NCBI GenBank assembly: GCA_038062895.1
Contig: JBBTWJ010000005.1
Span: 3,715-67,714, forward strand
Length of the DNA stretch: 64,000 bases
Origin: Patescibacteria group bacterium
GTDB lineage: Bacteria > Patescibacteriota > Microgenomatia > UBA10105 > UBA927
Direction of reading: 5' to 3'
In this document: positions 13,796-64,000 of the stretch, piece after piece
Layout of the letters: each line of letters begins with the position of its first letter
How positions within the stretch are numbered: the stretch's first letter is position 1
Position numbers and translations under genes: made by a program
The notes under the pieces: generated by a model
Database searches by the model: none
Seen by the model: the letters and a program-made list of their open reading frames with translations, nothing else
What the model was told of the DNA's origin: nothing

Positions 13796-13803
13796 AGCCT
13801 TAT

Positions 13804-48982: not shown

Positions 48983-48992
48983 TCATATATGT

Positions 48993-49373
48993 ATGCGGAG
49001 ACTATTTTGGATCATTCTGGCAATCTCTGTGTTTGTGTCTACGGGAACCGCGTATGCCGCGGATCCGTTCTGTCCCGGCAATAAACAGGGGATAAACACT
49101 GCGATCGGCTGCATTAACGCCGACGGCACCGGGGGTATCGTAAAAGAAATATTCCGATTGGGAACGGGTATTGCCGGAGGCATCGCGTTTCTTCTCATTC
49201 TTTTCGGTGGGTTTCAGATCATGACCAGCACCGGCAATCCCGAAAAGCTCAACGAGGGTAAAGAACTTATCGCCTCGGCCATCACCGGACTCCTCATGAT
49301 TCTTTTTTCCGTATTTCTCCTCAAGTTTATCGGTGTAGACTTACTCTGTATTCCCGGTTTCGGTTCGTGCTAA
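48993..49373 (+). CDS. Pilin-like small membrane protein (TrbC/VirB2-like, CPR 'T4SS pilin' type), paralog 1
   Basis: Signal peptide, then two hydrophobic helices flanking GGFQIMTSTGNPEKLNEGKELI. Confidence 0.7.
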   Translation: MRRLFWIILAISVFVSTGTAYAADPFCPGNKQGINTAIGCINADGTGGIVKEIFRLGTGIAGGIAFLLILFGGFQIMTSTGNPEKLNEGKELIASAITGLLMILFSVFLLKFIGVDLLCIPGFGSC

Positions 49374-49379
49374 ATCACT

Positions 49380-49721
49380 ATGGAATCCGTATTTGCTCAA
49401 AAACTTGAAATACCAGGCAATGGCCCAACTAAAGAACTTATCGAGGGGCCAACGGGGTTAACTATGAACTCCATCGGAGATATTATCAATAAAGCAATCC
49501 CCTACATCTTCTCGTTTGCCGGACTCGCTCTTCTTCTCATGCTCATCATGGCGGGATTTGACCTCCTCACAAGCGCCGGGGACGCAAAAAAACTGGAAAT
49601 GGGCAAGCAGCGCTTGACCTATGCGGTTGTCGGCATCATCCTGATCATCGTGGCCTATTGGCTGGTACAGATAGCCGGCATCATCTTCGGGGTTGCAGAG
49701 ATACAATCAGTGTTTAAATGA
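49380..49721 (+). CDS. Pilin-like small membrane protein, paralog 2
   Basis: AGFDLLTSAGDAKKLEMGKQRLTYAVVGIILIIVAYWLVQI motif. Confidence 0.7.
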   Translation: MESVFAQKLEIPGNGPTKELIEGPTGLTMNSIGDIINKAIPYIFSFAGLALLLMLIMAGFDLLTSAGDAKKLEMGKQRLTYAVVGIILIIVAYWLVQIAGIIFGVAEIQSVFK

Positions 49722-49789
49722 ACCAGATCCTTCGACTCTCCCTCGACATCGCTCGGGATCGCTCAGGATGATCGCGATTACTTTCGCGA

Positions 49790-50503
49790 TCATTTTCCAA
49801 ACCGTCGTTTTCGTTTTTGAAACTCTTCAATCGCCTCATCCAGTTTTTCCGGTGTAAATTCCGGCATAAACCACGTCGGAAAATACAGCTCGCTATACTC
49901 CGACTGCCACGGGAGAAATCCACTTAACCGCTGTTCTCCGCCGGTGCGGATGATAAGCTCGGGATCAGGAATACCATGCGTGTCTAAATACTGATGAAAA
50001 TCTTGTTCGGTCAACTTTAAACTTTTAACTTTAAACTTTAAACTTTCGCGCCATCTGTTGATGGCGCGTAGTATCTCATCTCTCCCACCGTAGTTGAGCG
50101 CAAAGACCGCCGTGATGGTCGTATTATTTTTCGTTTGGTGAGCGACGTCACTCAAGGATTTCTGGATATCAGCCGGAAACTTAGCCAGATCACCGATTGC
50201 GCGGACGCGGACGCCTTTCTCATGAAGACGGGCCCATCGGTTCTTGATCACATGACGGAATATCGTCATGATTCCGCGCACCTCTGGCGCTGCGCGGTTC
50301 CAATTCTCTGTAGAAAATGCCCAAAACGTCATATATTTGACTCCCCGCTTTGCGGCGTGTTCGATGAGGGGCTCAAGCACATCATTGGCCACCCGCCTGT
50401 GTCCTTCGAGAATCGGAAGTCCCCGTTCCTTTGCCCACCGGCGGTTGCCATCCATGATGACGGCGATATGGGTTGGAATATTCGTTGTATTTCCCATAAT
50501 CAT
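49790..50503 (-). CDS. uppS: Isoprenyl transferase (undecaprenyl diphosphate synthase, UppS)
   Basis: HIAVIMDGNRRWA...FSTENW...ELIIRTGGEQRLSGFLPWQ. Contains an in-frame heptamer repeat. Confidence 0.9.
   Translation of the reverse strand: MIMGNTTNIPTHIAVIMDGNRRWAKERGLPILEGHRRVANDVLEPLIEHAAKRGVKYMTFWAFSTENWNRAAPEVRGIMTIFRHVIKNRWARLHEKGVRVRAIGDLAKFPADIQKSLSDVAHQTKNNTTITAVFALNYGGRDEILRAINRWRESLKFKVKSLKLTEQDFHQYLDTHGIPDPELIIRTGGEQRLSGFLPWQSEYSELYFPTWFMPEFTPEKLDEAIEEFQKRKRRFGK
50013..50047. repeat. Heptanucleotide tandem repeat (aacttt[atc] x5) inside uppS CDS
   Basis: aactttaaacttttaactttaaactttaaactttc, translated as ..ESLKFKVKSLKLTE.. Confidence 0.85.
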
Positions 50504-50560
50504 TTTTTGTGTTTCCTACTCTTAATATATTTCTACACTTCTACATAGAAGTGTAGAATA

Positions 50561-51538
50561 TTAAAATAAATGATCTTTAATAAGATGCGCTCCGCGGGAG
50601 GGTTTGTTGACAATGACATCACGAATTTCGTCAATATCAGTTAATTTTGCTTTCAATGCGTCAACAGTGTTTGAATGACAAATAAGGTGAACATCCTGTC
50701 CGGTGTTAATAGTAAAATAGACTTCTATCCCTTCATCTCGCCACTTCTTAATAAGTCTTATAACCTGGAGCGTCCCCGGTGTCCAATAGATGAGTGGTGG
50801 TCTTGAAGTGAGCATCACCGCGTGCATCTCAAGAGCCTCTGCCTCAATAAGTTCTCCAAGGAGAGAAAAACGTTTTTCTGCCAACAGTTTTTTTGCCTGT
50901 ATTAATTTTTTTTTCATCCCTGCCAGACGCACCGGAAAAAAGGGGCTTGATGCAACGCGCGCCATTCCTTGAGTCGTGGGTACGGATTTTTTTCCTTCAT
51001 TAACGACTACCACGACATCAACGATATCCCACCAATCCGGCGGATAAAGGGAAACGCCGTAGGATGTATCACTCGTGTTGCCGTCGATCCACTCCACAAA
51101 CCCATCCGGAATAGATCTGCACGCAGAGCCGGAGCCCTGACGCGCGAGTATCGACAATTCTTTTTCATCAAGTTCTAACCCGGCTGCAGCAACTGCGGCA
51201 ACTGTTAGCGCCGCAAATCCAGAAGCAGAAGAGGATAATCCCGTACCAGAAGGAAAATTATTGACGGTGACGACTTTGGCGTAATCGTCCATACGCGCAA
51301 CCTTGCGAATCCGATCTAAATGCGTAATCGCTCTACTTCCATCAATTGCTTCCTGGATACCGTTAATCTCTATAACGTCCTCCTTATGCATTGGGCTGAA
51401 TTCCACGGTCGTTGTTGTCATCAAACCAGAAAGGTTCATTGATAAACTACCGTTTTCCGGCAAGCGTAATGCGTCATTTTTCTTTCCCCAATACTTGATA
51501 AATGCAATATTTGAGGGAGCAACAGCTGTAGCTTTCAT
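50561..51538 (-). CDS. mvaD: Diphosphomevalonate decarboxylase
   Basis: PSNIAFIKYWGK...GTGLSSSASGFAAL...SGSACRS. Start at the Met MKATAV, with a 4-nt ATGA overlap with the upstream gene. Confidence 0.9.
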   Translation of the reverse strand: MKATAVAPSNIAFIKYWGKKNDALRLPENGSLSMNLSGLMTTTTVEFSPMHKEDVIEINGIQEAIDGSRAITHLDRIRKVARMDDYAKVVTVNNFPSGTGLSSSASGFAALTVAAVAAAGLELDEKELSILARQGSGSACRSIPDGFVEWIDGNTSDTSYGVSLYPPDWWDIVDVVVVVNEGKKSVPTTQGMARVASSPFFPVRLAGMKKKLIQAKKLLAEKRFSLLGELIEAEALEMHAVMLTSRPPLIYWTPGTLQVIRLIKKWRDEGIEVYFTINTGQDVHLICHSNTVDALKAKLTDIDEIRDVIVNKPSRGAHLIKDHLF

Positions 51539-52983
51539 GATAAAATTCCTGCTTTTTTGAGCGAAACTTCTGCACATCTCGTAAGCACAATTTCCTTCGT
51601 TGCCACTTTAAATGGTATCTCCCGGGGAGAAAAAAATTCCACACGATCTACTTCCTCATGATTTATCCGAAACGGGCCATTGGATACCCCTCTATATAGC
51701 GCTGCCATTTCCGACTCCTGGTTATCTTGTACGACAAACCTGGAAAGCGGGGTAACTGGCATATCGACTCCCAGTTCTTCCTGAAGCTCGCGGTGAAGCG
51801 TCTCTTCGTACTCCTGACCTTTCCGCACATGGCCCGCGCAGGATATACCCCAAAGTCCCGCGCCCGTATCTTTAGAACTGCTCCTTTTTTGGAGAAGCAC
51901 ATTCCCTTTTTTATCAAAAATAACGGCTCCTACCGTGCGATGGATAAGTGACTTGTCATGATGGCAGTCATAGCGGCTGCGAAACCCAAGCACTCTGTCA
52001 TCTTTATCGACGACGATAAATTCTTCTTTCTGGTCATCGGTTGTCTCGATGCGGACACCTTGAGCGTTTGGGTGGACATCAATCGCTTCACCACCCGCAT
52101 CCGCTATCGCTTTTTGTATGGCTTCTCTCTTATCGCTCGGCCCAAGGGCGATCATACAATCTCCGCCCCCTGCACCGGAGAGCTTGGCGCCCCAAGCTCC
52201 TGCCTTTTTTGCCGCACTAATCATCGCTTCTAACTTTTCGCTGCTCACTCCCAAATCCCGCAGGTACTCATGATTAAAATCCATGAGTCTCCCCACCCGT
52301 TCCCAATCCCCTTCCAACATCCGCATTTTCGCTTCCTCAACCAATTTGGTTATCGCCTGAAAAATCCGCTCCACTTTCTCCGGATTCTTTTCCTTCTTTT
52401 CGGCCACTTGTTTTATAAGCATCGTCGTATCCGCTTTCACTCCCGTGTATCCAACAATGAGTGGCATTTCTGATACAGTTTGATCGTTTGATTCCCGGTA
52501 TTGAGCGTGGATTTCTTCAATAACTTTGCCGCCGGCAATGAAATAGAGGGTTCCCCCATACACGGCCGCTGCCACATCAAATCCGCTCCCCATCCCCTGC
52601 ACGGCTAACACCGTTTTATATGAAAGGTCAAAAAGCTCGCGCGACGTCACTTCTTTTTTGAAAAGCAAGGCAAGCGCCTTTACTACCCCCACCGTTACCG
52701 AGGCAGATGATCCGAAACCATATTTGCCCGAAAAGTTACTTTGTGTTTTGATCCGGAACCCAACCGATGGAATACCCCACCCTTTTTGTGCCTGCCGGAC
52801 CGCTTCATCCACAAAGCGGGTATCACCCGCTTGGGGCGCATCTACCACGACCTTACTTTCCTCAATTTTTTCCACTCCAACCGTAAGCCGCTCATCAATC
52901 GCGGTAACCAAAGAAGGATAGCCGTACACGACGGCGTGTTCACCCATTACCATTAATTTCCCTGGCGCGGAAATTAAAACCAT
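51535..52983 (-). CDS. Fusion protein: GHMP kinase (mevalonate/phosphomevalonate kinase-like) + isopentenyl-diphosphate isomerase type 1 (Nudix)
   Basis: N-terminus APGKLMVMGEHAVVYG..GFGSSAS (GHMP). The C-terminal ~160 aa has HRTVGAVIFDKKGNVLLQKRSSSKDTGAGLWGISCAGH...ELQEELGV, the IDI-1 pattern. Confidence 0.85.
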   Translation of the reverse strand: MVLISAPGKLMVMGEHAVVYGYPSLVTAIDERLTVGVEKIEESKVVVDAPQAGDTRFVDEAVRQAQKGWGIPSVGFRIKTQSNFSGKYGFGSSASVTVGVVKALALLFKKEVTSRELFDLSYKTVLAVQGMGSGFDVAAAVYGGTLYFIAGGKVIEEIHAQYRESNDQTVSEMPLIVGYTGVKADTTMLIKQVAEKKEKNPEKVERIFQAITKLVEEAKMRMLEGDWERVGRLMDFNHEYLRDLGVSSEKLEAMISAAKKAGAWGAKLSGAGGGDCMIALGPSDKREAIQKAIADAGGEAIDVHPNAQGVRIETTDDQKEEFIVVDKDDRVLGFRSRYDCHHDKSLIHRTVGAVIFDKKGNVLLQKRSSSKDTGAGLWGISCAGHVRKGQEYEETLHRELQEELGVDMPVTPLSRFVVQDNQESEMAALYRGVSNGPFRINHEEVDRVEFFSPREIPFKVATKEIVLTRCAEVSLKKAGILS

Positions 52984-53059
52984 AAATTGTTATTGGTTAG
53001 TTAGTTAATTAGTTACTTAGCTATAATTTATCTAACTAACAAAGTAACGAAATAACGAA
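52984..53059. repeat. Intergenic inverted-repeat spacer (module gttagttag/gttacttag/taactaac)
   Basis: ttggttagttagttaattagttacttagctataatttatctaactaacaaagtaacgaaataacgaactaac. Confidence 0.7.
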
Positions 53060-54031
53060 CTAACTTTTCTTCTCCAACCGTATCCCTTCTTCTCCTAATC
53101 TGATCGGTTGAATGGAAAATCCATATGGCTTGCTTATGGCAGATATCTTATCCGGGTCTTGGGTATAGCATAATAAAAATCCCACACCCTCCGCTTTTCC
53201 GCCGCCACCGAGGATCTTCGCTGCACCTCCGGCCTTTTCAATTTTCCTGATGAGCGGAATGACTTTCCTGCTTACCACTTCCATTCCCTCCAAGCTTCGC
53301 TGTCCGGCGGTCATTGCATCCATCAATTCTTTCTCATCCCCCTCCTTGATCGCCACCGCGATATTTCGAGTTTGTATTTCATTCTCATCAAATAATCTAT
53401 TCATTCTTGACGCCTGACGCCTGACGCCTGACGCTACCAAAGAAATCATCTCCCCTGTCGTCTCCTTCGGTTTCCCGGTATTGATGAGAAAAAAATGATT
53501 GAGACTTTCGGGTATCTTGAATGGCAACTGCCAGATGCTTTTGAGAAATTCAAGTTCCTTCCGAAACCAAATAAGTCCGCCCATGGTCACCGTCGTATTA
53601 TCTCCGCCGGAAGGATTCCCGTGCATTTTTTTCTCGACTTCATAGGCAATCTGGTTAATCGCAGCCGGATTCCAAACTTTTTTAAGATAATAGGTTAGGG
53701 CTCCGACGACTCCAACGGCTACTGCGGCCGATGAGCCCAAATGATAACCGGCAGGAATATCGGAAACAACCGTAATCTTCATCGGTGGAAGATTTGCAAG
53801 TTTATACTCCCGCTTGACCACCTCAACTACATGACGGATATAGTCGGACGGCTCACTGGAGTCGATAAGTATTTTTTCTCTGGATCCCCGCGTTCGCGGG
53901 GATGACAAAGAAAGCGACTCGACAGTCACACGCAAACGGAGGTTGATGGCGGCAAGAAGCGCGGGCTTACCATAAACAACCGCGTGTTCGCCCATTAAAT
54001 GCACTTTACCGGGAACGCTTACTGTAACCAT
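53060..54031 (-). CDS. mvk: Mevalonate kinase (GHMP kinase)
   Basis: VPGKVHLMGEHAVVYGKPALLAAI...GYHLGSSAAVAVG...KILGGGG. Contains a translated palindromic element and a heptamer repeat. Confidence 0.85.
   Translation of the reverse strand: MVTVSVPGKVHLMGEHAVVYGKPALLAAINLRLRVTVESLSLSSPRTRGSREKILIDSSEPSDYIRHVVEVVKREYKLANLPPMKITVVSDIPAGYHLGSSAAVAVGVVGALTYYLKKVWNPAAINQIAYEVEKKMHGNPSGGDNTTVTMGGLIWFRKELEFLKSIWQLPFKIPESLNHFFLINTGKPKETTGEMISLVASGVRRQASRMNRLFDENEIQTRNIAVAIKEGDEKELMDAMTAGQRSLEGMEVVSRKVIPLIRKIEKAGGAAKILGGGGKAEGVGFLLCYTQDPDKISAISKPYGFSIQPIRLGEEGIRLEKKS
53399..53428. repeat. Heptanucleotide tandem repeat ([ct]tgacgc x4) inside mvk CDS
   Basis: ttgacgcctgacgcctgacgcctgacgc, translated as ASGVRRQASR. 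Confidence 0.8.
53878..53908. repeat. Palindromic element family A' inserted in-frame in mvk (translated LSSPRTRGSRE)
   Basis: ctctggatccccgcgttcgcggggatgacaa, with arms GGATCCCCGCG/CGCGGGGATC. Confidence 0.8.
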
Positions 54032-54116
54032 AAATAGTTAGTTAGCAACGCTAGTTACTTCGTTACTTAGAAAAAATTTCTACCAAGTAACTAAATAACG
54101 CGCGTTGCTCGTGTTG
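54032..54116. repeat. Intergenic inverted-repeat spacer; left arm is the reverse complement of a segment in 54432..54508
   Basis: agttagcaacgctagttacttcgttacttag ... ctaagtaac...gttgctaac. Confidence 0.7.
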
Positions 54117-54431
54117 CTAACACGGTTTCACTTTTATCCCATACGGAATCACGCCCTCATTGTTTGGCTTAATGGTGCGGCGGACAACAGTAATAACCTT
54201 CATTCCCATAAGCTTTTCCTTCCCAGCCTGTCCGCCGGCTGGCGGATCTACAAGTTGTGCGGTTATTCTTTCTCCCCCACTAAGCTCGACAAGGACCACG
54301 GGATACGGAGCCTGATCGGAAAAATCAGCCGGAGGAACACGCACCATGGTCCACGAGATTATTTTCCCGATTTTCCCGAGCATTTTACCAACGTTCTTTT
54401 GATTTCTCCAAAGCTTGACCGGACTAAGCAT
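54117..54431 (-). CDS. DUF35 OB-fold/Zn-ribbon protein (thiolase/HMG-CoA synthase scaffold, archaeal type)
   Basis: 104 aa (...WTMVRVPPADFSDQAPYPVVLVELSGGERITAQLVD...) sitting between the thiolase and kinase genes. Confidence 0.7.
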   Translation of the reverse strand: MLSPVKLWRNQKNVGKMLGKIGKIISWTMVRVPPADFSDQAPYPVVLVELSGGERITAQLVDPPAGGQAGKEKLMGMKVITVVRRTIKPNNEGVIPYGIKVKPC

Positions 54432-54508
54432 AATTGTTACTTGGTTAGTTGGTTACTTAGTTATTAGTAAAAAATTTTTCTAAGTAACGAAGTAACTAGC
54501 GTTGCTAA
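54432..54508. repeat. Intergenic inverted-repeat spacer
   Basis: ttacttggttagttggttacttagttattag...ctaagtaacgaagtaactagcgttgctaactaac. Confidence 0.7.
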
Positions 54509-55663
54509 CTAACTTTTAAGTATATGAGCCACCGCGGTCGCTCCGCTTCCTCCGACGTTATGGGCAAGTCCCACGCGCGCGCCTTTCACTTGTCTGGCTC
54601 CTGCCACCCCCCGAAGTTGCGTCACCAATTCAACAACCTGCTTGACGCCCGTCGCGCCAATCGGATGACCACAGCCTTTCAGTCCCCCAGACGGATTGAC
54701 GACTAATTTTTTCGCTTTCCCCAGCGTCACTTCTCCCCGTGATATCGCTCGAGCTGCCATTCCCTTGCGATAAAATCCTATATCTTCCAGAGCTAAAATT
54801 TCTGCAATCGTAAAACAATCATGCACCTCGGCGATATCAATATCGCGAGGCCCGACGCCGGCAATCGCATAAGCGCGACGCGCAGCTTCTTGAGAAGCCG
54901 CAAGCTCGGTCAAGCTCTCTCTTTGGGCAAGTCCCAATGTGTCTGTTGCCACTGCGCTTGCGACAATTTCAATCTCCTTTTCCCTTTTTCCGTTTACCTT
55001 TTTCCTTGAAAGTATGAGTGCTGCTGCTCCGTCTGAAATCGGTGAGCAATCTAATAACTTCAGGGGGTCGGCGACAGCGTGGCTTCTTAGAACCTGCTCG
55101 ATGGTGAGAAGACTTCGAAATTGTGCGTTAGGGTTTAAACTCGCATGAAAATGATTTTTTACGGCAACTGCCGCCAGATCTTCTTGGGTCGTCCCATACT
55201 CCTGCATATGAATACGGGCAAGAATGGCGTAGAGCCCCGGAAACGTACAACCAGATGAACGCTCTTGAGCAGTCCCCGCGCCCATGAGCGCTGTCGCCAC
55301 ATCTTCTGGCTTGTGATCCGTCATCTTTTCGACCCCAAGTACGGCAACCGTCTCATACTGACCGGAGGCGATGGCGTTAAATGCGTTGTGAATAGCCAGG
55401 CCTCCCGACGCGCACGCGCCTTCAACCTTAAAAGCAGCAGCGTGAGTAAATCCCAGTTCCTCTGCAAAAAATGCCCCCAAATGCTCCTGTCCACCCAACA
55501 TGCCGGAGAGCATATTGCCTACGAATAACGCCTGAATGTCCCGCGGCTTCATAGCAGCATCTTTCAGCGCGCCGTCCATGGCCTCATGGGCGAGCGTCCT
55601 GGGAGAGACGCTCCAAAGCTCACCGAATTTAGTTGTAGAAGCACCGATGATAGATACATTCAT
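54509..55663 (-). CDS. Acetyl-CoA C-acetyltransferase (archaeal-type thiolase)
   Basis: MNVSIIGASTTKFGEL...ACASGGLAI.., a thiolase fold without the bacterial PhaA-type N-terminus. Confidence 0.9.
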   Translation of the reverse strand: MNVSIIGASTTKFGELWSVSPRTLAHEAMDGALKDAAMKPRDIQALFVGNMLSGMLGGQEHLGAFFAEELGFTHAAAFKVEGACASGGLAIHNAFNAIASGQYETVAVLGVEKMTDHKPEDVATALMGAGTAQERSSGCTFPGLYAILARIHMQEYGTTQEDLAAVAVKNHFHASLNPNAQFRSLLTIEQVLRSHAVADPLKLLDCSPISDGAAALILSRKKVNGKREKEIEIVASAVATDTLGLAQRESLTELAASQEAARRAYAIAGVGPRDIDIAEVHDCFTIAEILALEDIGFYRKGMAARAISRGEVTLGKAKKLVVNPSGGLKGCGHPIGATGVKQVVELVTQLRGVAGARQVKGARVGLAHNVGGSGATAVAHILKS

Positions 55664-55758
55664 AGTTGCTTGGTTAGTTGGTTACTTGGTTACTTAGAAA
55701 GAACTAAGTTGCTAAGTAACAGGTGTTGCTAACTAACAATCTAGCGAATTACCATTCG
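55664..55758. repeat. Intergenic inverted-repeat spacer
   Basis: ttgcttggttagttggttacttggttacttag...ctaagttgctaagtaacaggtgttgctaactaac, followed by a second palindrome ctagcgaattaccattcgctag. Confidence 0.7.
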
Positions 55759-56983: not shown

Positions 56984-58147
56984 TTAGTGCTTAGAGCTTC
57001 CGCGCGCAAGACGTTGATGCGCGCGGGCTAAGGTTCCCTCCGACAACGACGCAAGAAGTGAAATTTCACCAGCGAGTACGGCGGCTGCAATAATCTCCGC
57101 AAGCCGTTGAGCGTTTTTCCCATTATCCCCACCGGCAACGCCAAGAATGTTCAAGGCTTCTTTTTGTGTCCCAAGCCCTGTCCCGCCACCAACCGTCCCG
57201 ACCATAAGATCCGGGAGACATACATTGATATATACATCGTGACCATCAACTACTTCCATCGTCGTTATCCCCACGCTACACTCTCCCACGTGTCCGAGGT
57301 CTTGCCCTGTCGCCAAAAACATCGCCGCGATAACGTTGGCGTATTGGGCGTTAAATCCCATGGATCCGCTTATCGCGCTTCCGATCATACATTTAGCGAG
57401 CCATACTTCATAAACCTTTTGTGCCGTTGTTTTAAGAACATTTTTAAGAACACTCGCAGGAATAGTCACTTCTGCCCACACCTTGATCCCGCGATTTTCT
57501 ATGAAGTTAAGCCACGCGGATTTTTTGTCTATGTCAAAATTCCCGGCAAGTGAAAGGCATTTCACCCCGGTTTCCTCTTCGATATATGAGGCAAGAGCGT
57601 CGCTTGCTATTGTTGCCATGTTCATGCCCATAGCATCCTCGGTGTCAAACGTAAATCGCACAAACCGATATCTCCCAACCCCACGGGTCAACAACTTCTT
57701 TAACGTTATATGACGTGATGTTTTGGCGGCTACCTCCTGTAGATCATTCAAGTGCTCATTCAAAAATTTATATAAACGGTCGCTCTGTGCAAGATCTTTC
57801 ACTTTAAATACCGGACCCCGTGTCGCTCCCACCCGATGACTATCAACCGTCGACCCACCGCTTTCGGTGATCGCTTTACACCCCCGGCTCACGGAAGCGA
57901 CGAGAGCGCCTTCGGTCGTGGCGAGGGGAATATACCCACTGAAAACTTTAAACTTTAAACTTTTAACTTTGAGGGGGCCGGCGATACCTAGTGGGACTTG
58001 TGCCGCTCCGACCATGTTTTCGCAGTTTTTCGTTGATGCAACGGACTGGTCCAGAGTAAAGCTGCCGATGTTGATTAAATCAACCTTCAACTGTTTCTCC
58101 AGGGCGCTTCTGCGGTCCGTAACTGTTTTGTAATCACGAAGATTCAT
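56984..58147 (-). CDS. mvaA: HMG-CoA reductase
   Basis: ENMVGAAQVPLGIAGPL...ATTEGALVAS...DAMGMNM...GTVGGGT. Start at the Met MNLRDYK (ATGA overlap with the upstream Yip1 gene). Confidence 0.9.
   Translation of the reverse strand: MNLRDYKTVTDRRSALEKQLKVDLINIGSFTLDQSVASTKNCENMVGAAQVPLGIAGPLKVKSLKFKVFSGYIPLATTEGALVASVSRGCKAITESGGSTVDSHRVGATRGPVFKVKDLAQSDRLYKFLNEHLNDLQEVAAKTSRHITLKKLLTRGVGRYRFVRFTFDTEDAMGMNMATIASDALASYIEEETGVKCLSLAGNFDIDKKSAWLNFIENRGIKVWAEVTIPASVLKNVLKTTAQKVYEVWLAKCMIGSAISGSMGFNAQYANVIAAMFLATGQDLGHVGECSVGITTMEVVDGHDVYINVCLPDLMVGTVGGGTGLGTQKEALNILGVAGGDNGKNAQRLAEIIAAAVLAGEISLLASLSEGTLARAHQRLARGSSKH
57943..57970. repeat. Heptanucleotide tandem repeat (aacttt[atg] x4) inside HMG-CoA reductase CDS
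   Basis: aactttaaactttaaacttttaactttg, translated as LKVKSLKFKV between GPL and ATTEG. Confidence 0.85.
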
Positions 58148-58923
58148 AAAAACGGTACTCGAAATATTCCCAACCGGTACATCCCCCAACTCCAAACTCC
58201 CATAACCGGACCGACTACACCAACAACTGCCAAAATCCGCCAAAGATCAAGCTTGAGTCCGAACCGGAGCGTAAGATACCCAAGCGTCAGCTTCCAAAAA
58301 AAGAGTGTCGTGCTCACGACCAGAAATAACACGCTAAACCCCGTGCCCGCAATACTCGCGGTCCTTGGTGGGGGCAGCAATATATAGAGAAGCGAGGTCA
58401 TAAAAAACCAACAAACCGTGGGAAGCATCGTATATCCCCAACCAACCGCAATTCCTTTCATTGTCCCCTTCCCGCCGAACTGCTTCCCCACAAGCCAAAC
58501 CACACAGACAACAAGCATATAGGTCACCAGTGCGGCGACGGCCAGCACGACCGCGTGCTTAGAGAGAAGAAAGGGTCGAAACGCTGCGACTTTGACCAGG
58601 CTTGCAAGAGAAAAGTAGACGATGGCCAACGCTGCGACATACACAAGCTCCCACGCGCCTCCCTTGCCTACAACCTTGCGATACGTTTCGTATGGACGGA
58701 CTACGAGACCAATGGTGGTACGACCAAATGCGATACCGGACATGATGAGCTGATCAAGCATAGTATGAAAAAGTAGTGGTATGAAGTTAGTCGAAGGATA
58801 AGGGCTAAAACCCGCGGTTAAAATCCTCTTTGGAGGAGAGTAACAAGAAGGGTGATGGTTGAACCGATCAGGAAGTACAGGATAAGCACACATGCCGCAG
58901 CCGACAAAACAAAATACGGCCAT
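58144..58923 (-). CDS. Yip1-family membrane protein
   Basis: 5 TM with a Yip1-like topology. The start may be the Met at 58761. Confidence 0.6.
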   Translation of the reverse strand: MAVFCFVGCGMCAYPVLPDRFNHHPSCYSPPKRILTAGFSPYPSTNFIPLLFHTMLDQLIMSGIAFGRTTIGLVVRPYETYRKVVGKGGAWELVYVAALAIVYFSLASLVKVAAFRPFLLSKHAVVLAVAALVTYMLVVCVVWLVGKQFGGKGTMKGIAVGWGYTMLPTVCWFFMTSLLYILLPPPRTASIAGTGFSVLFLVVSTTLFFWKLTLGYLTLRFGLKLDLWRILAVVGVVGPVMGVWSWGMYRLGIFRVPFL

Positions 58924-59048
58924 GGCATAACTTTCAGCCTGCGGATAAACGATTTATAGACAGGCGTGAACGGTCCCAACGTCTGTGGGGGGAGGTCTAC
59001 AACCTGCTCCCAACGGGTAAGAAATTTTTTGTAGGTGACGTCTTTCAT
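58818..59048 (-). CDS. Small membrane protein (possible anti-sigma factor)
   Basis: 76 aa with a single TM, immediately downstream of the ECF sigma factor. Confidence 0.4.
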   Translation of the reverse strand: MKDVTYKKFLTRWEQVVDLPPQTLGPFTPVYKSFIRRLKVMPWPYFVLSAAACVLILYFLIGSTITLLVTLLQRGF

Positions 59049-59126
59049 GATTTTGACGTCATTCTGGAAGCCGAAGGCTGATAGAATCTCCAGGGGATCC
59101 TATCGCTTCGCTCCAGGATGACATTT

Positions 59127-59666
59127 TTAAATAGAAAGGAATGCTTCTACGAACGCTTTTCTCGCTCGAAACAGTTGCGACTCTGCGCTTTTAAAGCTTA
59201 TGGTAAGTTTTTCTGCAATTTCTGAAACGCTAAATCCATCTGCGTATTTGAGAACGAGAACACTCTTATACATCGGCAGAAGCCGACCCAAGGCTCTATA
59301 AATTTTCTCCCGAAGCAGGCTCGCATCAAGCTCTTCCTCCGGTCCTAAAAGCGGAGCTACAAATGATTCAAGTTGCGGCACCGCAGAAAACACGACGTGA
59401 CGGATTTTCTTTCTCCTATACCAGTCAATCACCTTGTGGCTTGCGATCGCGTAAAGAAACGTCTTGAGCTTGGACGCTCCGGTAAAATCACGGATGGCCT
59501 CAAGAAACCCAAAAAGCGCATCTTGCAACACCTCTTCGGCATCATCGGGGTTGGCAATCTTCGCGCGGATAAAGAGACGAAGCTTCGGGGTATACATCCG
59601 GTAAAATACCGAAAGTGCCTGGCGATCGTGCGCGAGGATTTGAGTAATGAGTTCCTGGTCATTCAT
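59127..59666 (-). CDS. ECF-type RNA polymerase sigma factor (sigma-70 family)
   Basis: Region 2 (FYRMYTPKLRLFIRAKI...EEVLQDALFGFLEA) and a region-4 HTH (YADGFSVSEIAEKLTISFKSAESQLFRARKAF). Confidence 0.85.
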   Translation of the reverse strand: MNDQELITQILAHDRQALSVFYRMYTPKLRLFIRAKIANPDDAEEVLQDALFGFLEAIRDFTGASKLKTFLYAIASHKVIDWYRRKKIRHVVFSAVPQLESFVAPLLGPEEELDASLLREKIYRALGRLLPMYKSVLVLKYADGFSVSEIAEKLTISFKSAESQLFRARKAFVEAFLSI

Positions 59667-59697
59667 GAATTGAATGCAAAACGACTAAAAGACTATA

Positions 59698-60648
59698 TCA
59701 TGCTTGGCGGTTGAGCGCAAAACTTGCAAAGTCAGTAAGAAGCGCTCCCATGCCGACAGACGCATGAATCGCTTGGGTCGCCTGAGCCGTCTGCTTTCCA
59801 AGCTTCTTGGCCTGTGTGCGGAAAGCGTCCTCACCAACTTCACCATCAAGGAAATCATCGCGCAGTTGATATGCCTCTCCCACCGCCAGGCCGTACGGTA
59901 CAAACGATTCGAGCGTTTTCTCATCCGACCCGGCGATGCTCGCTCCGATCTGAAGAGGCCGGACGACGCTGTACCAAGCAGTTTTATAACGGTTAATCGT
60001 TGCCCTGTCGGCGCTGGGCAATCCAGCGGAGGCCAACACATCCAGGCTCTGACCCAAAATCACCTCTTGTTTCATTTTCTGATAATTTACCCACACGCTC
60101 GACCAATTCCGGGAATCCTTTGGATTCCCGGAATTAACGGCCCGGTTCATCAGTTCATCCGCCCACGCCAATGCGAGGTCGCCGGCGAGGATAGCCATGC
60201 TCTCGCCGAAACGCGAACTCCCCATCCGATTCCGGGAATCCAAAGGATTCCCGGAATCTAGCGCAACCTGCTTAAACTTTTCATGAACAGTGGGACTGCC
60301 GCGGCGCATCGCATCTTCGTCAATAATATCGTCATGGATGAGAGCAAACGACTGAAATAGTTCAATTCCCATCATGGCAGAGAGCACGTTGTCATCCCCG
60401 ACCCGATCGGGGATCCAGGTATTGCGCTGGATTCCCGCGTGCGCGGGAATGACAGACTGGTGCCCCAGCCATACCAGAAACGCCCGGGTCCGCTTGCCGC
60501 CGCGGGAGGTGAGATCGGCTATTTGGTCAACGAGTTGTATGGTCTGCGGATGGATGTTTTTCGCTTCACTGTGTTTGGTCGTAAAAAAGTGTTGAAGTTC
60601 ATGATCGACGTTCTTCTTGACATCATGAAGGGCTGTAGTGAGATCCAT
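59698..60648 (-). CDS. Polyprenyl diphosphate synthase (FPP/GGPP synthase family) carrying three translated palindromic insertions
   Basis: FARM motif LIHDDIIDEDAMRRG and SARM motif GEAYQLRDDFLD. Start at the Met MDLTTALHD; the longer ORF extension is encoded by an intergenic repeat copy. Confidence 0.9.
   Translation of the reverse strand: MDLTTALHDVKKNVDHELQHFFTTKHSEAKNIHPQTIQLVDQIADLTSRGGKRTRAFLVWLGHQSVIPAHAGIQRNTWIPDRVGDDNVLSAMMGIELFQSFALIHDDIIDEDAMRRGSPTVHEKFKQVALDSGNPLDSRNRMGSSRFGESMAILAGDLALAWADELMNRAVNSGNPKDSRNWSSVWVNYQKMKQEVILGQSLDVLASAGLPSADRATINRYKTAWYSVVRPLQIGASIAGSDEKTLESFVPYGLAVGEAYQLRDDFLDGEVGEDAFRTQAKKLGKQTAQATQAIHASVGMGALLTDFASFALNRQA
60105..60142. repeat. Palindromic element family B (14-bp arms) inside polyprenyl synthase CDS, translated NSGNPKDSRNW
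   Basis: aattccgggaatcc-ttt-ggattcccggaatt. Confidence 0.85.
60229..60262. repeat. Palindromic element family B, second copy, inside polyprenyl synthase CDS, translated DSGNPLDSRNR
   Basis: gattccgggaatcc-aaa-ggattcccggaatc. Confidence 0.85.
60427..60454. repeat. Palindromic element family A inside polyprenyl synthase CDS, translated SVIPAHAGIQ
   Basis: ctggattcccgcgtgcgcgggaatgaca. Confidence 0.85.
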
Positions 60649-60674
60649 GGGAGAAGTATACCAAATTTCATAAG

Positions 60675-60709
60675 GCCACCCCTTGCAAACGCCAAGGGGT
60701 GGCCTTGAA
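60675..60709. repeat. Perfect hairpin (copy 2), identical to 42772..42806
   Basis: aaggccaccccttgcaaacgccaaggggtggcctt. Confidence 0.75.
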
Positions 60710-60724
60710 AAACACATTTGAACT

Positions 60725-60752
60725 CTGGATTCCCGCCGTCGCGGGAATGACA
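60725..60752. repeat. Palindromic element family A, intergenic copy
   Basis: ctggattcccgccgtcgcgggaatgaca. Confidence 0.8.
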
Positions 60753-60804
60753 ATTCTTCGCATATTGTTGACAGTCGCCTTCAGCTTTCCGTACACTTAT
60801 ACTC

Positions 60805-61113
60805 ATGGAGCGTATCTTTGCCGTCGACCTTCAAAATACATCACCAACGTTTAGCGCGTATCCCACGTTCGGGGCATTAGTCACCATCATCGTGCGCAAC
60901 TCATTCGTGCTGGCTGGCATCATAAGCTTCCTGCTTTTGGTTTTCGGAGGATTTAGCGTTATAATGGCAGCAGGATCTGGCGACACGAAGGAGCTTGAGA
61001 AAGGTCAAAAGACGATCACGTATGCGATCCTGGGACTTATTCTCGTCGTCACGTCGTACTGGATCGTCCAGATTATCGAAAAAGTGTCGGGTGTCAAACT
61101 TATCACACCATAA
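60805..61113 (+). CDS. Pilin-like small membrane protein, paralog 3
   Basis: FGGFSVIMAAGSGDTKELEKGQKTITYAILGLILVVTSYWIVQII. Confidence 0.7.
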   Translation: MERIFAVDLQNTSPTFSAYPTFGALVTIIVRNSFVLAGIISFLLLVFGGFSVIMAAGSGDTKELEKGQKTITYAILGLILVVTSYWIVQIIEKVSGVKLITP

Positions 61114-61114
61114 T

Positions 61115-61492
61115 ATGTTCATGTTTACTTCTAAAATTTTTGCTCAAGGAAGCGCGGCAAACGACGTCGTCGGTAGTGTCACAAACCCCCTGGTGGCTTA
61201 CGGCAGCGTCACACAAGGGCTCATCCCGTTTTTTACCAATCTCATCCGCCTCATGTTTGTCGGAGCGGGTATATACGCCTTCATAAATTTCATTATTGCC
61301 GGATACCAGTATATGAGCGCGGGCGGCGATACCAAGGCGCTTGCTTCTGCCTGGGCGCGCATTTGGCAATCTCTGTTGGGGCTCGTCATCATCGTAGGTT
61401 CGTTTGCCCTGGCGGCACTTTTTGGATATCTTATATTCGGCAACGCGGGCTTTATTCTTAATCCGGTCATTTATGGACCGGGAGACAAATAA
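61115..61492 (+). CDS. Pilin-like small membrane protein, paralog 4
   Basis: Start at ATG 61115 just after the previous stop. IAGYQYMSAGGDTKALASAWARIWQSLLGLVIIVGSF. Confidence 0.65.
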   Translation: MFMFTSKIFAQGSAANDVVGSVTNPLVAYGSVTQGLIPFFTNLIRLMFVGAGIYAFINFIIAGYQYMSAGGDTKALASAWARIWQSLLGLVIIVGSFALAALFGYLIFGNAGFILNPVIYGPGDK

Positions 61493-61494
61493 CT

Positions 61495-61884
61495 ATGAAG
61501 GTGTTTGCTTCAGAACCACTTGGAACAATCGGGGGCGAGGGACTGGGACCCTGGGGCTTAATCGGAAAAAACCTTAGCGCTGATAACGGTGTTGCCGGAT
61601 TAAGAGCAGTTACCGCAACAATTTCCGGGGTCATCGGCGTCATGACGGTGGCTGCCGGCATCTGGTTTATCTTCCAAGTCCTCATCGGAGGCTTTTACTG
61701 GATCACATCAGCAGGCGACAAAACGAAACTCAATGAAGCACGCGACCGCATACAAAATGCGGCAATCGGACTCGTCGTCGTCGTCGCAGGATGGTCGATC
61801 CTCGCGCTCGCCGGACAATTCTTGGGGTACGATATTGTCATCAGCAATCCCGGAGAAGTAATAAAACAATTAAAAATACAATAA
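61495..61884 (+). CDS. Pilin-like small membrane protein, paralog 5
   Basis: IGGFYWITSAGDKTKLNEARDRIQNAAIGLVVVVAGWSILAL. Confidence 0.7.
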   Translation: MKVFASEPLGTIGGEGLGPWGLIGKNLSADNGVAGLRAVTATISGVIGVMTVAAGIWFIFQVLIGGFYWITSAGDKTKLNEARDRIQNAAIGLVVVVAGWSILALAGQFLGYDIVISNPGEVIKQLKIQ

Positions 61885-61893
61885 CAATTTACT

Positions 61894-61921
61894 CTGGATT
61901 CCCGCCTGCGCGGGAATGACA
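61894..61921. repeat. Palindromic element family A, copy overlapping the start region of the next pilin gene
   Basis: ctggattcccgcctgcgcgggaatgaca. Confidence 0.8.
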
Positions 61922-62266
61922 CACATGAATCGAACACTAGCTCAGCTTATCAATCCCGTCATCCCGGAGATCATCGGCAAGGGACCAGTCGAAAAAGGAA
62001 GTGTCGCCATCGGCATACTCCTCACACAAGTATTTAGCGCGCTTTTTTTATTCGCATTCATCACCGCATTTTTATATCTCATCACCGGAGCCATGCATTG
62101 GATCACAAGCGGTGGAGACAAAACCAAGCTTGAGGAAGCGAGAAACCGCATCATCCACTCAATCGTCGGCATCATCGTGGTGGCCTCATCATGGGCGATT
62201 ATCACGCTTATTGGTCAATTTATCGGATTGGATCTTGAAAATCTTCCGATCCCGACGATCAAATAG
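61916..62266 (+). CDS. Pilin-like small membrane protein, paralog 6
   Basis: TGAMHWITSGGDKTKLEEARNRIIHSIVGIIVVASSWAIITLI. The first ATG lies inside the repeat; the true start may be the ATG at 61925. Confidence 0.7.
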   Translation: MTHMNRTLAQLINPVIPEIIGKGPVEKGSVAIGILLTQVFSALFLFAFITAFLYLITGAMHWITSGGDKTKLEEARNRIIHSIVGIIVVASSWAIITLIGQFIGLDLENLPIPTIK

Positions 62267-62354
62267 ACCTAACCGTCTATTGACAAACAGCGTCCATTTG
62301 CAGAACAATAAGAAAGAGGATATAATCGATACTAGCTGATAAAGGAGGATCCAT

Positions 62355-62699
62355 ATGTTTGAACAAATTTTTGCCGCAGGAGAACCAACAATAACAATTT
62401 CCCGGGACAGAGCACAGTTTTTCAAAATCCAAAATTTGGGCGAGCTCATCAGTGCCGCTGTGGGCGCACTCTTGGTCATTGCCGCTCTCCTTGCGTTTTT
62501 CTTTCTTATCCTGGGTGGCATCCAGTGGATCACCTCCGGTGGAGATAAAACCGGCATGGAAGCAGCCCGCAATAAAATTACTCACGCCGTCGTGGGTCTC
62601 GTGATCGTCGGAGCCGCTTGGGCCATCATGATCCTCGTCCAGAACTTCCTGGGCGTCACGATCATCGGCGACACACTTACGCTTCCCAAGCCATTCTAA
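62355..62699 (+). CDS. Pilin-like small membrane protein, paralog 7
   Basis: Strong SD aaaggagg 6 nt upstream. LGGIQWITSGGDKTGMEAARNKITHAVVGLVIVGAAWAIMIL. Confidence 0.75.
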   Translation: MFEQIFAAGEPTITISRDRAQFFKIQNLGELISAAVGALLVIAALLAFFFLILGGIQWITSGGDKTGMEAARNKITHAVVGLVIVGAAWAIMILVQNFLGVTIIGDTLTLPKPF

Positions 62700-62787
62700 C
62701 AACTACGTGATGGGTGAATGAGGGATGAGTCAATACCATAACACTTCTGGACTTTGTTCTATAAACCCGCGATAATACAAGTATCGT

Positions 62788-63177
62788 ATGACTCGCAAAG
62801 CGTTTCCCTCATTCTATTATTCTCTTATTCCATTATTCGTTTATTTCTTTATTAGCTTGTCGCCCGTCAATGCCGCCCCGTGGGGCGGGTGTGTCATTGA
62901 GGAGGCGGCAACCCTCCAGTGTCTCGTCCCCATGTTTGAGCGCATCGTGCAGGGAATTCTTGCACTCTCCGGCGTTGCGCTCTTTGTGATGCTGGTCATC
63001 GGCGGATACAATTTTCTCCTCTCGGGAGGCGACCAAAAAAAGCTCGAGACGGCCCGTAGCACAATCACCACGGCGATCTTGGGGCTCGTGATCATGGTGA
63101 TTGCCTACCTCATCATCAAAACCATCGCAAACTTTACCGGTGTCCAGTCCGTCACTCAATTTAATATTCCGCAGTAG
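62788..63177 (+). CDS. Pilin-like small membrane protein, paralog 8
   Basis: IGGYNFLLSGGDQKKLETARSTITTAILGLVIMVIAYLII, with a Cys pair in the N-terminal region. Confidence 0.7.
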   Translation: MTRKAFPSFYYSLIPLFVYFFISLSPVNAAPWGGCVIEEAATLQCLVPMFERIVQGILALSGVALFVMLVIGGYNFLLSGGDQKKLETARSTITTAILGLVIMVIAYLIIKTIANFTGVQSVTQFNIPQ

Positions 63178-63209
63178 AAATAGAAACAAAGAGTGCCTAT
63201 ACTTATCGT

Positions 63210-64000
63210 ATGAAATCGTTTTTCGTTTCACTCTCGATTCTCATCTTCGCCTCGCTGTTCGGTCTGACCGTCTTGGCCAAACCCGTCCACGCCGCATCCT
63301 GGGCCATGCCCGGCGTCAACGATCTCCTTGATGCTATGTTTAAAACCGAAAACGGGGGAGTTAACGCAAATGGAGCTAATGTATTTGCCGGAAGAACCCA
63401 GATGACATGGCTAGTATGCGAAATCCTAGGATGCACTGATAAACTCGATGCCATTGGAGGCCCTGCAGTATTTCATTATAACAATAGCGCGGTCGCCGGA
63501 ATGGGGAACGCTATTGCAGGGCTTTATGATAAACCTCCTGCGTCAACGTATGCATTTGCCATTGAAGTGGGAGAAACTCTTGGGTTTATTCCTAAACAAA
63601 CATACGCTCAGGGCGTTGGATTCGCCGGCCTCCGACCGCTTTTGGGTATCTGGAAGGTGTTCCGAAACATCGCATACGGCATCATCGCTATCATCATCGT
63701 TATTGTTGGATTTATGGTCATGCTCCGGACGAAAATTGATCCTAAAACTGTCGTGTCCGTACAAAACGCCATACCAAAAATCGTCTGGGCGCTCATCCTT
63801 GTCACGTTTTCCTACGCCATTGTAGGATTTCTCATTGACATTATGTATGTACTTATGCTGCTTCTCGCAAACCTACTCATCGCCCCTTATAGCGAACTTT
63901 ATACTAATTGGGCGAACGCACAAAAATTCGTCTTCGTTCCGACAAATTGGGTCGATCAATTATTCCCCACCACAGCGGATAAATTTATCTCTAGTGGTTT
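63210..64000 (+). CDS. Secreted/polytopic membrane protein (partial; possibly VirB6/TrbL-like, accompanying the pilin array)
   Basis: ATG at 63210 with an uninterrupted frame to the window end. Signal peptide MKSFFVSLSILIFASLFGLTVLAKPVHA and several later TM helices. Absent from the ORF track because there is no stop within the window. Confidence 0.6.
   Translation, partial: MKSFFVSLSILIFASLFGLTVLAKPVHAASWAMPGVNDLLDAMFKTENGGVNANGANVFAGRTQMTWLVCEILGCTDKLDAIGGPAVFHYNNSAVAGMGNAIAGLYDKPPASTYAFAIEVGETLGFIPKQTYAQGVGFAGLRPLLGIWKVFRNIAYGIIAIIIVIVGFMVMLRTKIDPKTVVSVQNAIPKIVWALILVTFSYAIVGFLIDIMYVLMLLLANLLIAPYSELYTNWANAQKFVFVPTNWVDQLFPTTADKFISSG

Follow-up and report, generated by a model that had tools for sequence, protein, structure and literature searches.

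Do eight divergent copies of a pilin-like gene on one bacterial chromosome form a repertoire of interchangeable surface variants, or are they the separate parts of one structure? The question is raised by a stretch of 64,000 nucleotides (nt) from a Patescibacteria group bacterium (GenBank assembly GCA_038062895.1, contig JBBTWJ010000005.1, positions 3,715 to 67,714 of the forward strand), which we call the window and in which eight plus-strand open reading frames (ORFs), termed P1 to P8, encode homologous two-helix membrane proteins of 102-129 amino acids (aa). A preliminary description of the window had placed these genes in two arrays, of two genes at 48993-49721 and of six at 60805-63177, had given their products as 100-130 aa long, and had seen in them pilins of a type IV secretion system (T4SS) whose multiplicity might serve the antigenic or functional variation of a surface filament. 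The arrays and the small size of the proteins were confirmed (Table 1). We consider it probable that the eight genes form the pilin module of a chromosomal T4SS of the monoderm type, with P7 as the major subunit and the other paralogues as fixed minor subunits.

The eight paralogues and the T4SS pilin family

The hidden Markov model (HMM) search that had been proposed for these genes showed that all eight paralogues match PF18895 (T4SS_pilin; gathering score 26.6 bits), five of them (P1, P2, P6, P7 and P8) with scores that exceed this threshold. P3 and P5 miss it by no more than 1.3 bits, and the match of P4 is weak (scores in Table 1). Pairwise local identity among the paralogues is 26-44%, with a mean of 33%; profiles built with one orthologue group left out at a time recover every paralogue, with E-values of 3e-17 to 2e-34 (1.5e-23 for P3 and 1.3e-22 for P4), and a family HMM run over the whole window matched the eight ORFs and no other. 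The 42 members of one of our alignments of the family all match PF18895 as well. The conserved core noted earlier, followed by a second hydrophobic helix, is seen in the alignment of the eight as GG(F/I)xW(I)TSxGDxxKLxxARxxIxxAxxGL. Judged by their sequences, the eight paralogues belong to PF18895 and to a class of pilin arrays already published for Patescibacteria. In a survey of 3,035 Patescibacteria genomes based on PF18895 and PF04956, Quinonero-Coronel et al. (2025; PMC12102498) found 441 arrays of 2-11 VirB2-like genes in 383 assemblies, with a mean within-array identity of 25%; such arrays were commonest in Microgenomatia and Saccharimonadia.

A second family is matched by all eight proteins, namely NF045849 (NCBIfam; Mbov_0395 family pilin-like conjugal transfer protein), at 17.5-31.9 bits and E-values from 7.8e-8 (P2, the best match) to 2.3e-3, over the whole 80-residue length of the model. 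None of the eight reaches its curated equivalog cut-off of 40 bits, and on these scores the paralogues are related to this family of Mycoplasma integrative and conjugative elements (ICEs) and are not members of it. As a lead, the sub-threshold matches suggest that hairpin "pilins" may already exist in some monoderm T4SSs, and they bear on a question raised by PMC12102498, namely whether Patescibacteria took over their pilins from diderm systems.

A fixed, ordered set of orthologues

We compared 80 loci from species-representative genomes, which were fetched through an alignment of the family of the 518-aa membrane protein whose gene follows P8, and in which pilins were located by an iterated HMM. 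The 518-aa protein and P7 have their closest homologues in records that their sources name Candidatus Gottesmanbacteria, Woesebacteria or Microgenomates; that the closest relatives are labelled Candidatus Gottesmanbacteria agrees with the link to the candidate phyla radiation (CPR) drawn in the preliminary description.

Nearly all loci with enough upstream sequence have six pilin genes directly before the homologue of the 518-aa protein. When each gene is given the name of the window paralogue that it matches best, 50 loci show the collinear order P3-P4-P5-P6-P7-P8, the others being truncated or giving near-identical patterns, and the cognate paralogue scores 100-200 bits against 50-85 bits for the next best. 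When the 54 loci with six contiguous genes were compared all against all, 322 of the 324 best foreign matches occupied the corresponding position of the other array. The groups also have tail motifs of their own: LAQIxNPVLP…LPIPT in P6, P.C…TAIGCI in P1, W..C….VATI.CLEPLF in P8, and those listed for P4 and P5 in Table 1.

The ratio of non-synonymous to synonymous substitution rates (dN/dS; Nei-Gojobori, three relatives) is 0.05-0.21 for all six array genes, highest in P8 (0.18-0.21), and 0.10-0.13 for the gene of the 518-aa protein, values that are approximate because dS, at 0.8-2.5, is near saturation. In replicate assemblies of one population the pilin genes are 100% identical. The median identity to the window copy is 69% for P7 and 48-62% for the remaining genes of the array; at the same loci the 518-aa protein ranges over 29-76%.

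The surroundings are conserved too. The common order runs from the mevalonate operon through Yip1, a 76-aa membrane protein, an ECF-type (extracytoplasmic function) sigma factor and sometimes a polyprenyl synthase to P3-P8 and the 518-aa protein, and then on to a large protein, a type IV coupling protein (T4CP), PrgI, a TrsD-like protein and VirB4. P1, P2 and UPPS stand together at two further loci (L048 and L080), a third (L029) keeps P2 and UPPS, and a fourth (L078) has SpoIID, P1, P2 and UPPS; in two of these four, P2 and P3 are separated by UPPS and polyprenyl synthase only. The locus is chromosomal and has been inherited vertically, and its division into two arrays is likewise old. Each of the six array genes represents an ancient group of orthologues, conserved under purifying selection throughout a clade of family to order rank.

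The one-to-one fixed order, the low dN/dS and the synteny argue against antigenic or host-range variation and favour eight non-interchangeable subunits; rapid diversification or turnover of paralogues between related strains and species, as proposed for Bartonella and Anaplasma, was not found among these loci. The variation that the preliminary description had suggested survives in part: functional variation stands in the form of fixed specialised roles, while antigenic variation of a surface filament is contradicted for this clade by ancient fixed-order paralogues, purifying selection and identity in replicate assemblies.

A predicted two-helix hairpin

Hydropathy gives every paralogue two hydrophobic segments beyond any signal peptide, and the hairpin predicted for each consists of an N-terminal tail, a first transmembrane helix (TM1), a short loop (TSGGDKxKLExAR) that is the segment richest in lysine and arginine, a second helix (TM2) and a C-terminal tail. 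In an AlphaFold2 (AF2) model of P7, residues 1-24 are disordered and two helices (25-60 and 65-99) are joined by a four-residue turn, with a predicted local distance difference test score (pLDDT) of 88-97 in the helices. The two-helix membrane hairpin of about 70 residues that characterizes PF18895 is found in the hydropathy of all the paralogues and in the P7 model.

The preliminary description had given every paralogue an N-terminal hydrophobic or signal segment, which we see in P1 and P8 alone. There it is signal-peptide-like and has conserved cysteine pairs behind it: the signal peptide of P1 looks cleavable (…GTAYA/AD) and precedes C27 and C40, whose motif is kept in the six orthologues seen, and that of P8 (…SPVNA/AP) precedes the pair in the P8 motif given above. 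P2-P7 begin instead with a hydrophilic tail of 25-45 residues before TM1, and no in-frame upstream start is possible. We infer a topology in which both termini lie outside and the loop lies in the cytoplasm, the N-terminal tail being placed outside because P1 and P8 carry signal peptides and conserved cysteine pairs.

Several N-termini among P2-P7 share the pattern M-x(1-8)-[VIL]-[FL]-A-[QAS] (MESVFAQ, …KIFAQ, …TLAQ, …QIFAA, MKVFAS; for example at 49380-49400, 61115-61150, 61925-61950 and 62355-62380), which is conserved among the P2, P6 and P7 orthologues and whose xFAQ/LAQ part resembles the A-x-A-Q end of VirB2 leaders (PAAAQ, PALAQ, VAHAQ). We considered and rejected a vestigial signal-peptidase site, since the preceding 3-9 residues have no hydrophobic core and cannot form a signal peptide.

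Secretion genes downstream and a candidate VirB6

Within the window there is no secretion ATPase, its large ORFs encoding BipA, DnaG, a major facilitator superfamily transporter, an NHL-repeat protein and SpoIID. The downstream genes were read on a 224,654-bp contig (ENA ERZ1292633, Hainich groundwater well H41) that shares 11,213 nt of identical sequence with the window. On it P8 is followed, in this order, by genes for the 518-aa polytopic protein, a 1147-aa protein on the opposite strand, a 730-aa T4CP, a 446-aa PrgI protein, a 233-aa TrsD-like protein and VirB4. The 730-aa protein is a coupling protein of the VirD4/TraG type, with the domains TrwB_AAD_bind, T4SS-DNA_transf and TraG-D_C; the 446-aa protein has an N-terminal PrgI (VirB3-like) domain (28.9 bits; gathering score 27); the 233-aa protein matches TrsD and the N-terminal part of VirB4_plasma; and the VirB4-like product, whose gene starts about 10 kb downstream of P8, has DUF87, AAA_10 and P-loop_TraG domains. 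The gene set of a monoderm (MPF_FATA-like) Patescibacteria T4SS, that is VirB4, PrgI/VirB3 and a TrsD-like protein, is present. The preliminary description had tied the pilin assignment to pilin-family matches and to VirB4-, VirB6- or VirD4-like genes beyond position 64000; with the HMM matches given above, and with a coupling protein, PrgI/VirB3-like, TrsD-like and VirB4 proteins and a VirB6-like candidate now seen there, both are found. In the published survey, 1,135 Patescibacteria assemblies have pilin genes in the neighbourhood of virB4, and the VirB4 lineage is of the monoderm type (MPF_FATA); Microgenomatia have few recognized VirB6 proteins ("extreme sequence divergence"), and a T4CP gene close to virB4 is rare (PMC12102498).

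The larger polytopic membrane protein that had been seen to run off the window from position 63210 is real and has 518 aa on the longer contig. Its gene directly follows P8 in about 70 loci, and its more than 500 homologues are all unnamed and without Pfam domains. The protein has no match in Pfam, NCBIfam or the sequences of the PDB, and a profile of its family found nothing relevant among the PDB sequences. Its AF2 model (pLDDT 73) is all-helical and polytopic. The top three matches of this model in a Foldseek search of the PDB are TrwI/VirB6 chains of R388, at marginal values (E 0.06, probability 0.96, template-modelling scores 0.22/0.34), and six more of the top 12 are chains from entries of the R388 stalk complex (TrwI/VirB6 with TrwJ/VirB5). 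We do not assign the 518-aa protein to the VirB6 family, but propose it as a candidate for the VirB6 that is "missing" from Microgenomatia.

Two other downstream products have unusual features. The PrgI/VirB3-like protein (L001 17969-19309) is unusually long at 446 aa, with a long linker rich in proline, alanine and serine after the PrgI domain and a C-terminal domain that gives weak CarboxypepD_reg and Ig-like matches and is probably extracellular. The 1147-aa protein (L001 11987-15430, minus strand), encoded between the VirB6-like and T4CP genes, is mostly hydrophilic with one C-terminal hydrophobic segment and has no family match; its gene is kept in the closer relatives, and distant ones have other large unmatched genes in its place (for example a 1031-aa ORF in L078).

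Expression signals in the six-gene array

In related loci the P3/P4, P4/P5 and P5/P6 junctions have median lengths of 2-4 nt, and the median spacers upstream and downstream of P7 are 89 and 58 nt long. The strong Shine-Dalgarno sequence (SD) that had been noted in one gene is AAAGGAGGA at 62342-62350, before P7. Of 67 P7 orthologues, 64% have an SD of 5 nt or more, against 0-3% of the orthologues of P3-P6, P8 and the VirB6-like gene and 2-6% of 53 long ORFs of the window. A promoter-like site upstream of P7 is conserved in 89% of the orthologues, with TTGACA-N18-AAxAAT about 44-52 nt before the ATG.

The other sites lie much closer to the genes (Table 1). A motif of the P3 type (TTGACx-N17/18-TACACT) scores at least 9/12 in 72% of the orthologous loci, at a modal distance of 6-7 nt, and TTGAC-N17-20-TACACT occurs once in the window, at P3. 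GTACACT has four copies in the window, two of them at the starts of the two arrays. In the P8 orthologues xATAAT is conserved, ending 6-9 nt before the ATG. The P3 site, 7 nt from the ATG, implies a leaderless P3-P6 transcript, and the P8 site, 11 nt from the ATG, a short-leader or leaderless transcript of P8 and the VirB6-like gene. The large array would then comprise three units, namely leaderless P3-P6, the leadered, SD-bearing P7, and P8 with the VirB6-like gene. That P7 has a promoter-like site of its own and a uniquely strong SD suggests one major and several minor subunits. A scan of 48-64 kb with Rfam found no RNA family, and so no known riboswitch or leader in the spacer between P6 and P7; a terminator scan of the array gave two hits, within the number expected by chance, and we claim no terminator after P7.

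The -10 hexamers 7-11 nt before the starts of P1, P3 and P8 (48977-48995, 60768-60807 and 62748-62790), together with the small number of SDs, suggest that leaderless or SD-independent initiation is widespread in this organism.

A model of the module and what weighs against it

In the model that we favour, the hairpins would sit in the membrane with a cytoplasmic loop and both termini on the outer side, VirB4 would extract the pilin subunits from the membrane, and the VirB6-like protein would be the platform on which the subunits are built into a heteromeric pilus or a conduit spanning the cell wall. P7 would be the abundant major subunit and make up the bulk of this structure, whereas P3-P6 (the products of a leaderless operon with translational coupling), P8 (on one transcript with the VirB6-like gene) and P1-P2 (encoded beside a SpoIID-type wall hydrolase) would be minor subunits, present in low copy and not interchangeable, that initiate, cap or anchor it. 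A bolder version, in which the VirB2-type structure is obligately heteromeric and the seven minor subunits make up an initiation, tip or anchor complex that replaces VirB5 and the core-complex proteins, we put forward tentatively, as a possibility that we hold to be somewhat doubtful. If it were true, the assembly of a T4SS pilus would be akin, in its use of major and minor subunits, to type II secretion and type IV pili, and if the six pilins of Saccharibacteria proved orthologous to P3-P8, the heteromeric architecture would be ancestral to Patescibacteria.

The matter is of some weight. Southlakia epibionticum ML1 cannot grow as an epibiont without a T4SS cluster that includes a predicted series of pilins (Wang et al. 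2023; PMC10633639); it is the one species in which a Patescibacterial T4SS has been so tested, and a 2025 review speaks of six divergent VirB2-like pilins in S. epibionticum and of a possible pilus on a monoderm (PMC12857230). The pilin arrays set this T4SS apart from every other monoderm T4SS. If the arrays are indeed a fixed multi-subunit set with one abundant member, P7 would be the filament-subunit target and the other paralogues individually required parts, and a defined heteromeric complex would be expected on the VirB6-like platform of 518 aa, a protein that escapes standard HMMs in Microgenomatia.

A number of points weigh against the model. The link to the classical pilins is weak: the resemblance to a TrbC/VirB2-like "T4SS pilin" family proposed in the preliminary description stood as regards PF18895, but the sequences do not establish membership of the classical family (PF04956), to which P2 gives an E-value of 0.073 and P4 one of 0.35, the other six paralogues having no match. 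Compared by hhalign with seven genuine VirB2/TrbC sequences from Ti, Ri and other MPF_T plasmids, a 90-sequence profile of CPR pilins gave a probability of 10.7% (P 0.003), at which low probability the two align in register, TM1-loop-TM2. A Foldseek search of the PDB with the P7 model returned generic helical hairpins only, with a best E-value of 1.3 and an archaeal conjugation pilin at rank 46 (E 7), the method being unable to separate such a hairpin from many unrelated ones, and a search of the PDB sequences with a profile of the pilin alignment found no relevant match. We have to assume that the N-terminal tails of P2-P7, 25-45 residues without a signal peptide, are moved outward across the membrane. 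The proposed VirB6 is a candidate on the basis of its position and a marginal fold match, and hhalign of its family with five MPF_T VirB6 sequences gave 0.8% (VirB3, VirB8 and VirB10 controls at most 0.2%). The division into major and minor subunits is suggested by translation and promoter signals only, and 36% of the P7 orthologues are without a long SD; the dN/dS values, too, are approximate for the reason given. Finally, no filament has been reported for any Patescibacterial T4SS in the literature that we searched, and to our knowledge monoderm T4SSs normally have no pili.

In an alternative that we regard as rather unlikely, the eight proteins are T4SS components that make no pilus and instead form a heteromeric channel lining, or a stalk, in or just above the cytoplasmic membrane, as one might picture for the pilin-like proteins of Mycoplasma ICEs in wall-less monoderms. 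A fixed set of six subunits does suit a defined complex better than a homopolymer, although the very strong SD of one member suggests a polymerising subunit of high copy number. Six of the eight proteins have no signal peptide, yet the conserved extracytoplasmic cysteine pairs and the tail motifs suggest exposed parts. And while the best independent family match of all eight is the Mycoplasma ICE family, and the VirB4 lineage is of a monoderm type (MPF_FATA, PMC12102498) whose systems have no known pili, the cell wall must still be crossed, and genes for wall hydrolases are associated with the locus.

That the paralogues are interchangeable VirB2 variants for antigenic or host-range variation is improbable and, for this clade, largely refuted. 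The low identity within the arrays, the tandem arrangement, tails that are less conserved than the transmembrane core and the faster evolution of P8 (dN/dS about 0.2) would all be at home in such a repertoire; they have to be set beside one-to-one orthology in fixed order over 54 loci, tail motifs specific to each position, a dN/dS of no more than 0.21 in every array member, a copy number unchanged in most relatives, the identity of the pilin genes within a population, and a P7 that stays 69-90% identical across species in which the VirB6-like protein is 33-76% identical. Least probable is that these are small membrane proteins unrelated to secretion (holin-like, or associated with lipids or isoprenoids) whose T4SS adjacency is a frozen gene order, for although the arrays flank isoprenoid genes (UPPS, mevalonate pathway, polyprenyl synthase) in a conserved arrangement, Foldseek yields generic hairpins only and a Pfam family name is an annotation and not an experiment, the T4SS genes come next on the same strand with P8 apparently co-transcribed with the VirB6-like gene, the families of the eight are tied to virB4 and conjugation by the 1,135 assemblies (PMC12102498) and by the independent match to NF045849, and in S. 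epibionticum an array is essential together with its T4SS (PMC10633639).

Gene starts, neighbouring genes and repeats

Coordinates are collected in Table 1. For P4 we take the start at 61115, and not the mechanical ORF start at 60995, because the gene caller and the orthologues support it; the start of P6 is most likely 61925, because its orthologues have 113-114 aa and the ATG at 61916 sits inside a palindromic insertion.

Table 1. Positions in the window of the pilin paralogues, their expression signals and associated features.
Feature	Position	Strand	Remarks
SpoIID-domain protein	47177-48982	-	601 aa; membrane anchor and coiled coil; PF08486, E 2.3e-17; divergent from P1
P1 -10-like motif	48977-48983	+	GTACACT, 9 nt before P1 ATG; same -10 type as P3
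P1	48993-49373	+	126 aa; PF18895 36.8 bits; three hydrophobic segments; C-terminal Cys residues
P2	49380-49721	+	113 aa; starts 6 nt after P1; PF18895 36.4 bits; without signal peptide
Single-TM protein	58818-59048	-	76 aa
ECF-type sigma factor	59127-59666	-	Sigma70_r2/r4
Palindrome	60723-60752	.	CTCTGGATTCCCGC-N4-GCGGGAATGACA; upstream of P3 promoter
P3 promoter-like site	60768-60797	+	TTGACA-N18-TACACT, ends 7 nt before P3 ATG
P3	60805-61113	+	102 aa; opens the six-gene array; PF18895 25.7 bits; position-1 orthologue group, 54 loci
P4	61115-61492	+	125 aa; array gene 2; PF18895 14.9 bits; C-terminal …FILNPxIYGP conserved
P5	61495-61884	+	129 aa; array gene 3; PF18895 25.3 bits; N-terminal tail LGxIGGxGLGPFG conserved
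Palindrome, second copy	61892-61921	.	insertion in P5/P6 junction, 2-4 nt long in relatives; overlaps first ATG of P6
P6	61916/61925-62266	+	116 or 113 aa; array gene 4; PF18895 33.3 bits
P7 expression signals	62280-62350	+	TTGACA-N18-AACAAT, overlapping TTTGCA-N18-TATAAT, then SD AAAGGAGGA
P7	62355-62699	+	114 aa; array gene 5; PF18895 38.1 bits; best conserved paralogue; candidate major subunit
P8 promoter-like site	62748-62776	+	TGGACT-N17-GATAAT, ends 11 nt before P8 ATG
P8	62788-63177	+	129 aa; array gene 6; PF18895 30.2 bits; fastest-evolving member
518-aa polytopic protein	63210-64000 (end = 64766)	+	N-terminal 263 aa in window; candidate VirB6 analogue

Beside P1, the SpoIID-domain protein may be a partner that opens the cell wall; in one distant locus (L081), genes for an SLT-domain and a SpoIID-domain protein lie between the pilin array and the VirB6-like gene. 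The sigma factor and the 76-aa protein, a possible anti-sigma factor, are encoded immediately upstream of P3 and divergently from it in most related loci, and may act as regulators, for example of the GTACACT-type promoters of P1 and P3. Within the mevalonate operon, 51535-52983 (minus strand) encodes a 482-aa protein in which a GHMP kinase is fused to a NUDIX domain, probably a phosphomevalonate kinase with an IDI-like domain. We claim no functional link between the pilins and the isoprenoid genes, for which there is conserved synteny but no further evidence.

The family-A palindromes placed by the preliminary description in two of the spacers (at 60725 and 61894) are there, as ATTCCCGC-N4-GCGGGAAT at 60729-60748 and 61898-61917. 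The window holds five matches against 0.04 expected, with further copies at 60431 and, as a variant, at 53884. The palindrome of about 30 nt is found in two coding genes as well, as in-frame insertions (60423-60454 and 53878-53907) that read …VIPAHAGIQ… in the polyprenyl synthase and …SSPRTRGS… in the mevalonate kinase, residues that the orthologues do not have. These coding insertions are reminiscent of the Rickettsia palindromic elements.

Elsewhere in the window, positions 12001-16000 have a G+C content of 0.385-0.388, against 0.44-0.52 in the rest, and could be a foreign or atypical segment. Among the records of related loci, many GTDB-representative metagenome-assembled genomes (L008, L014-L018 and others) are titled "uncultured Gammaproteobacteria bacterium", and one "Woesearchaeota archaeon"; the titles look mislabelled, because the locus carried is clearly Patescibacterial.

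Comparison with known systems

With the classical pilins VirB2, TrbC and TraA (PF04956) of the T-pilus and F-pilus, the proteins described here share a mature size of about 70-100 residues, two hydrophobic helices with a short charged loop between them, and genes that adjoin those of VirB3, VirB4 and VirB6 type. They differ in that six of the eight have no long cleavable leader, in that genes for VirB5, VirB7, VirB9 and VirB10 are not present, and in having a monoderm host and eight obligate paralogues in place of one major pilin.

The Mycoplasma ICEs with their Mbov_0395/MMCAP2_0565 pilin-like family offer a likeness from the monoderm side: both families belong to monoderm T4SSs, and the 233-aa protein matches the N-terminal part of the corresponding Mycoplasma VirB4 family as well as TrsD. 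Those elements are mobile and are not known to carry more than a single pilin-like copy, whereas the locus here is chromosomal and has eight.

Several tandem, divergent VirB2-type genes at one T4SS locus are also known from Bartonella and Anaplasma phagocytophilum. Those arrays are thought to vary between strains and under immune pressure, in contrast to the position-by-position orthologues seen here, with a dN/dS of at most 0.21. The type II secretion systems and type IV pili (GspG with GspH-K; PilA with FimU/PilVWX) are alike in logic only, in that an abundant major subunit is encoded together with a conserved, ordered series of low-copy paralogues; type IV pilins have a single N-terminal helix, a globular head and cleavage by a prepilin peptidase, and their fold and assembly machinery are unrelated to those considered here.

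Closest of all are the arrays of other Patescibacteria. PF18895, two plus six genes with a mean identity of 33%, and a position near virB4 are what PMC12102498 describes as an array; a monoderm-type VirB4, PrgI/VirB3 and TrsD adjoin it, no relaxase was seen nearby, and the six-gene array equals the S. epibionticum pilins in number. The locus is a further example of the published phenomenon. It differs from the surveyed arrays in its split around an 11-kb isoprenoid operon, in a T4CP close to virB4, which is rare in that survey, and in a candidate VirB6 from a family that HMMs do not recognise. What it adds is a fixed-order orthologous set, a single strongly signalled member and a candidate divergent VirB6, none of which we found in PMC12102498, PMC10633639, PMC12857230 or the other literature searched. 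In PMC12102498 the arrays are read as host versatility, since their variety may aid adaptation to different hosts by analogy with Bartonella and Anaplasma; here, by contrast, the set is fixed, ordered and kept by purifying selection, with one member strongly signalled.

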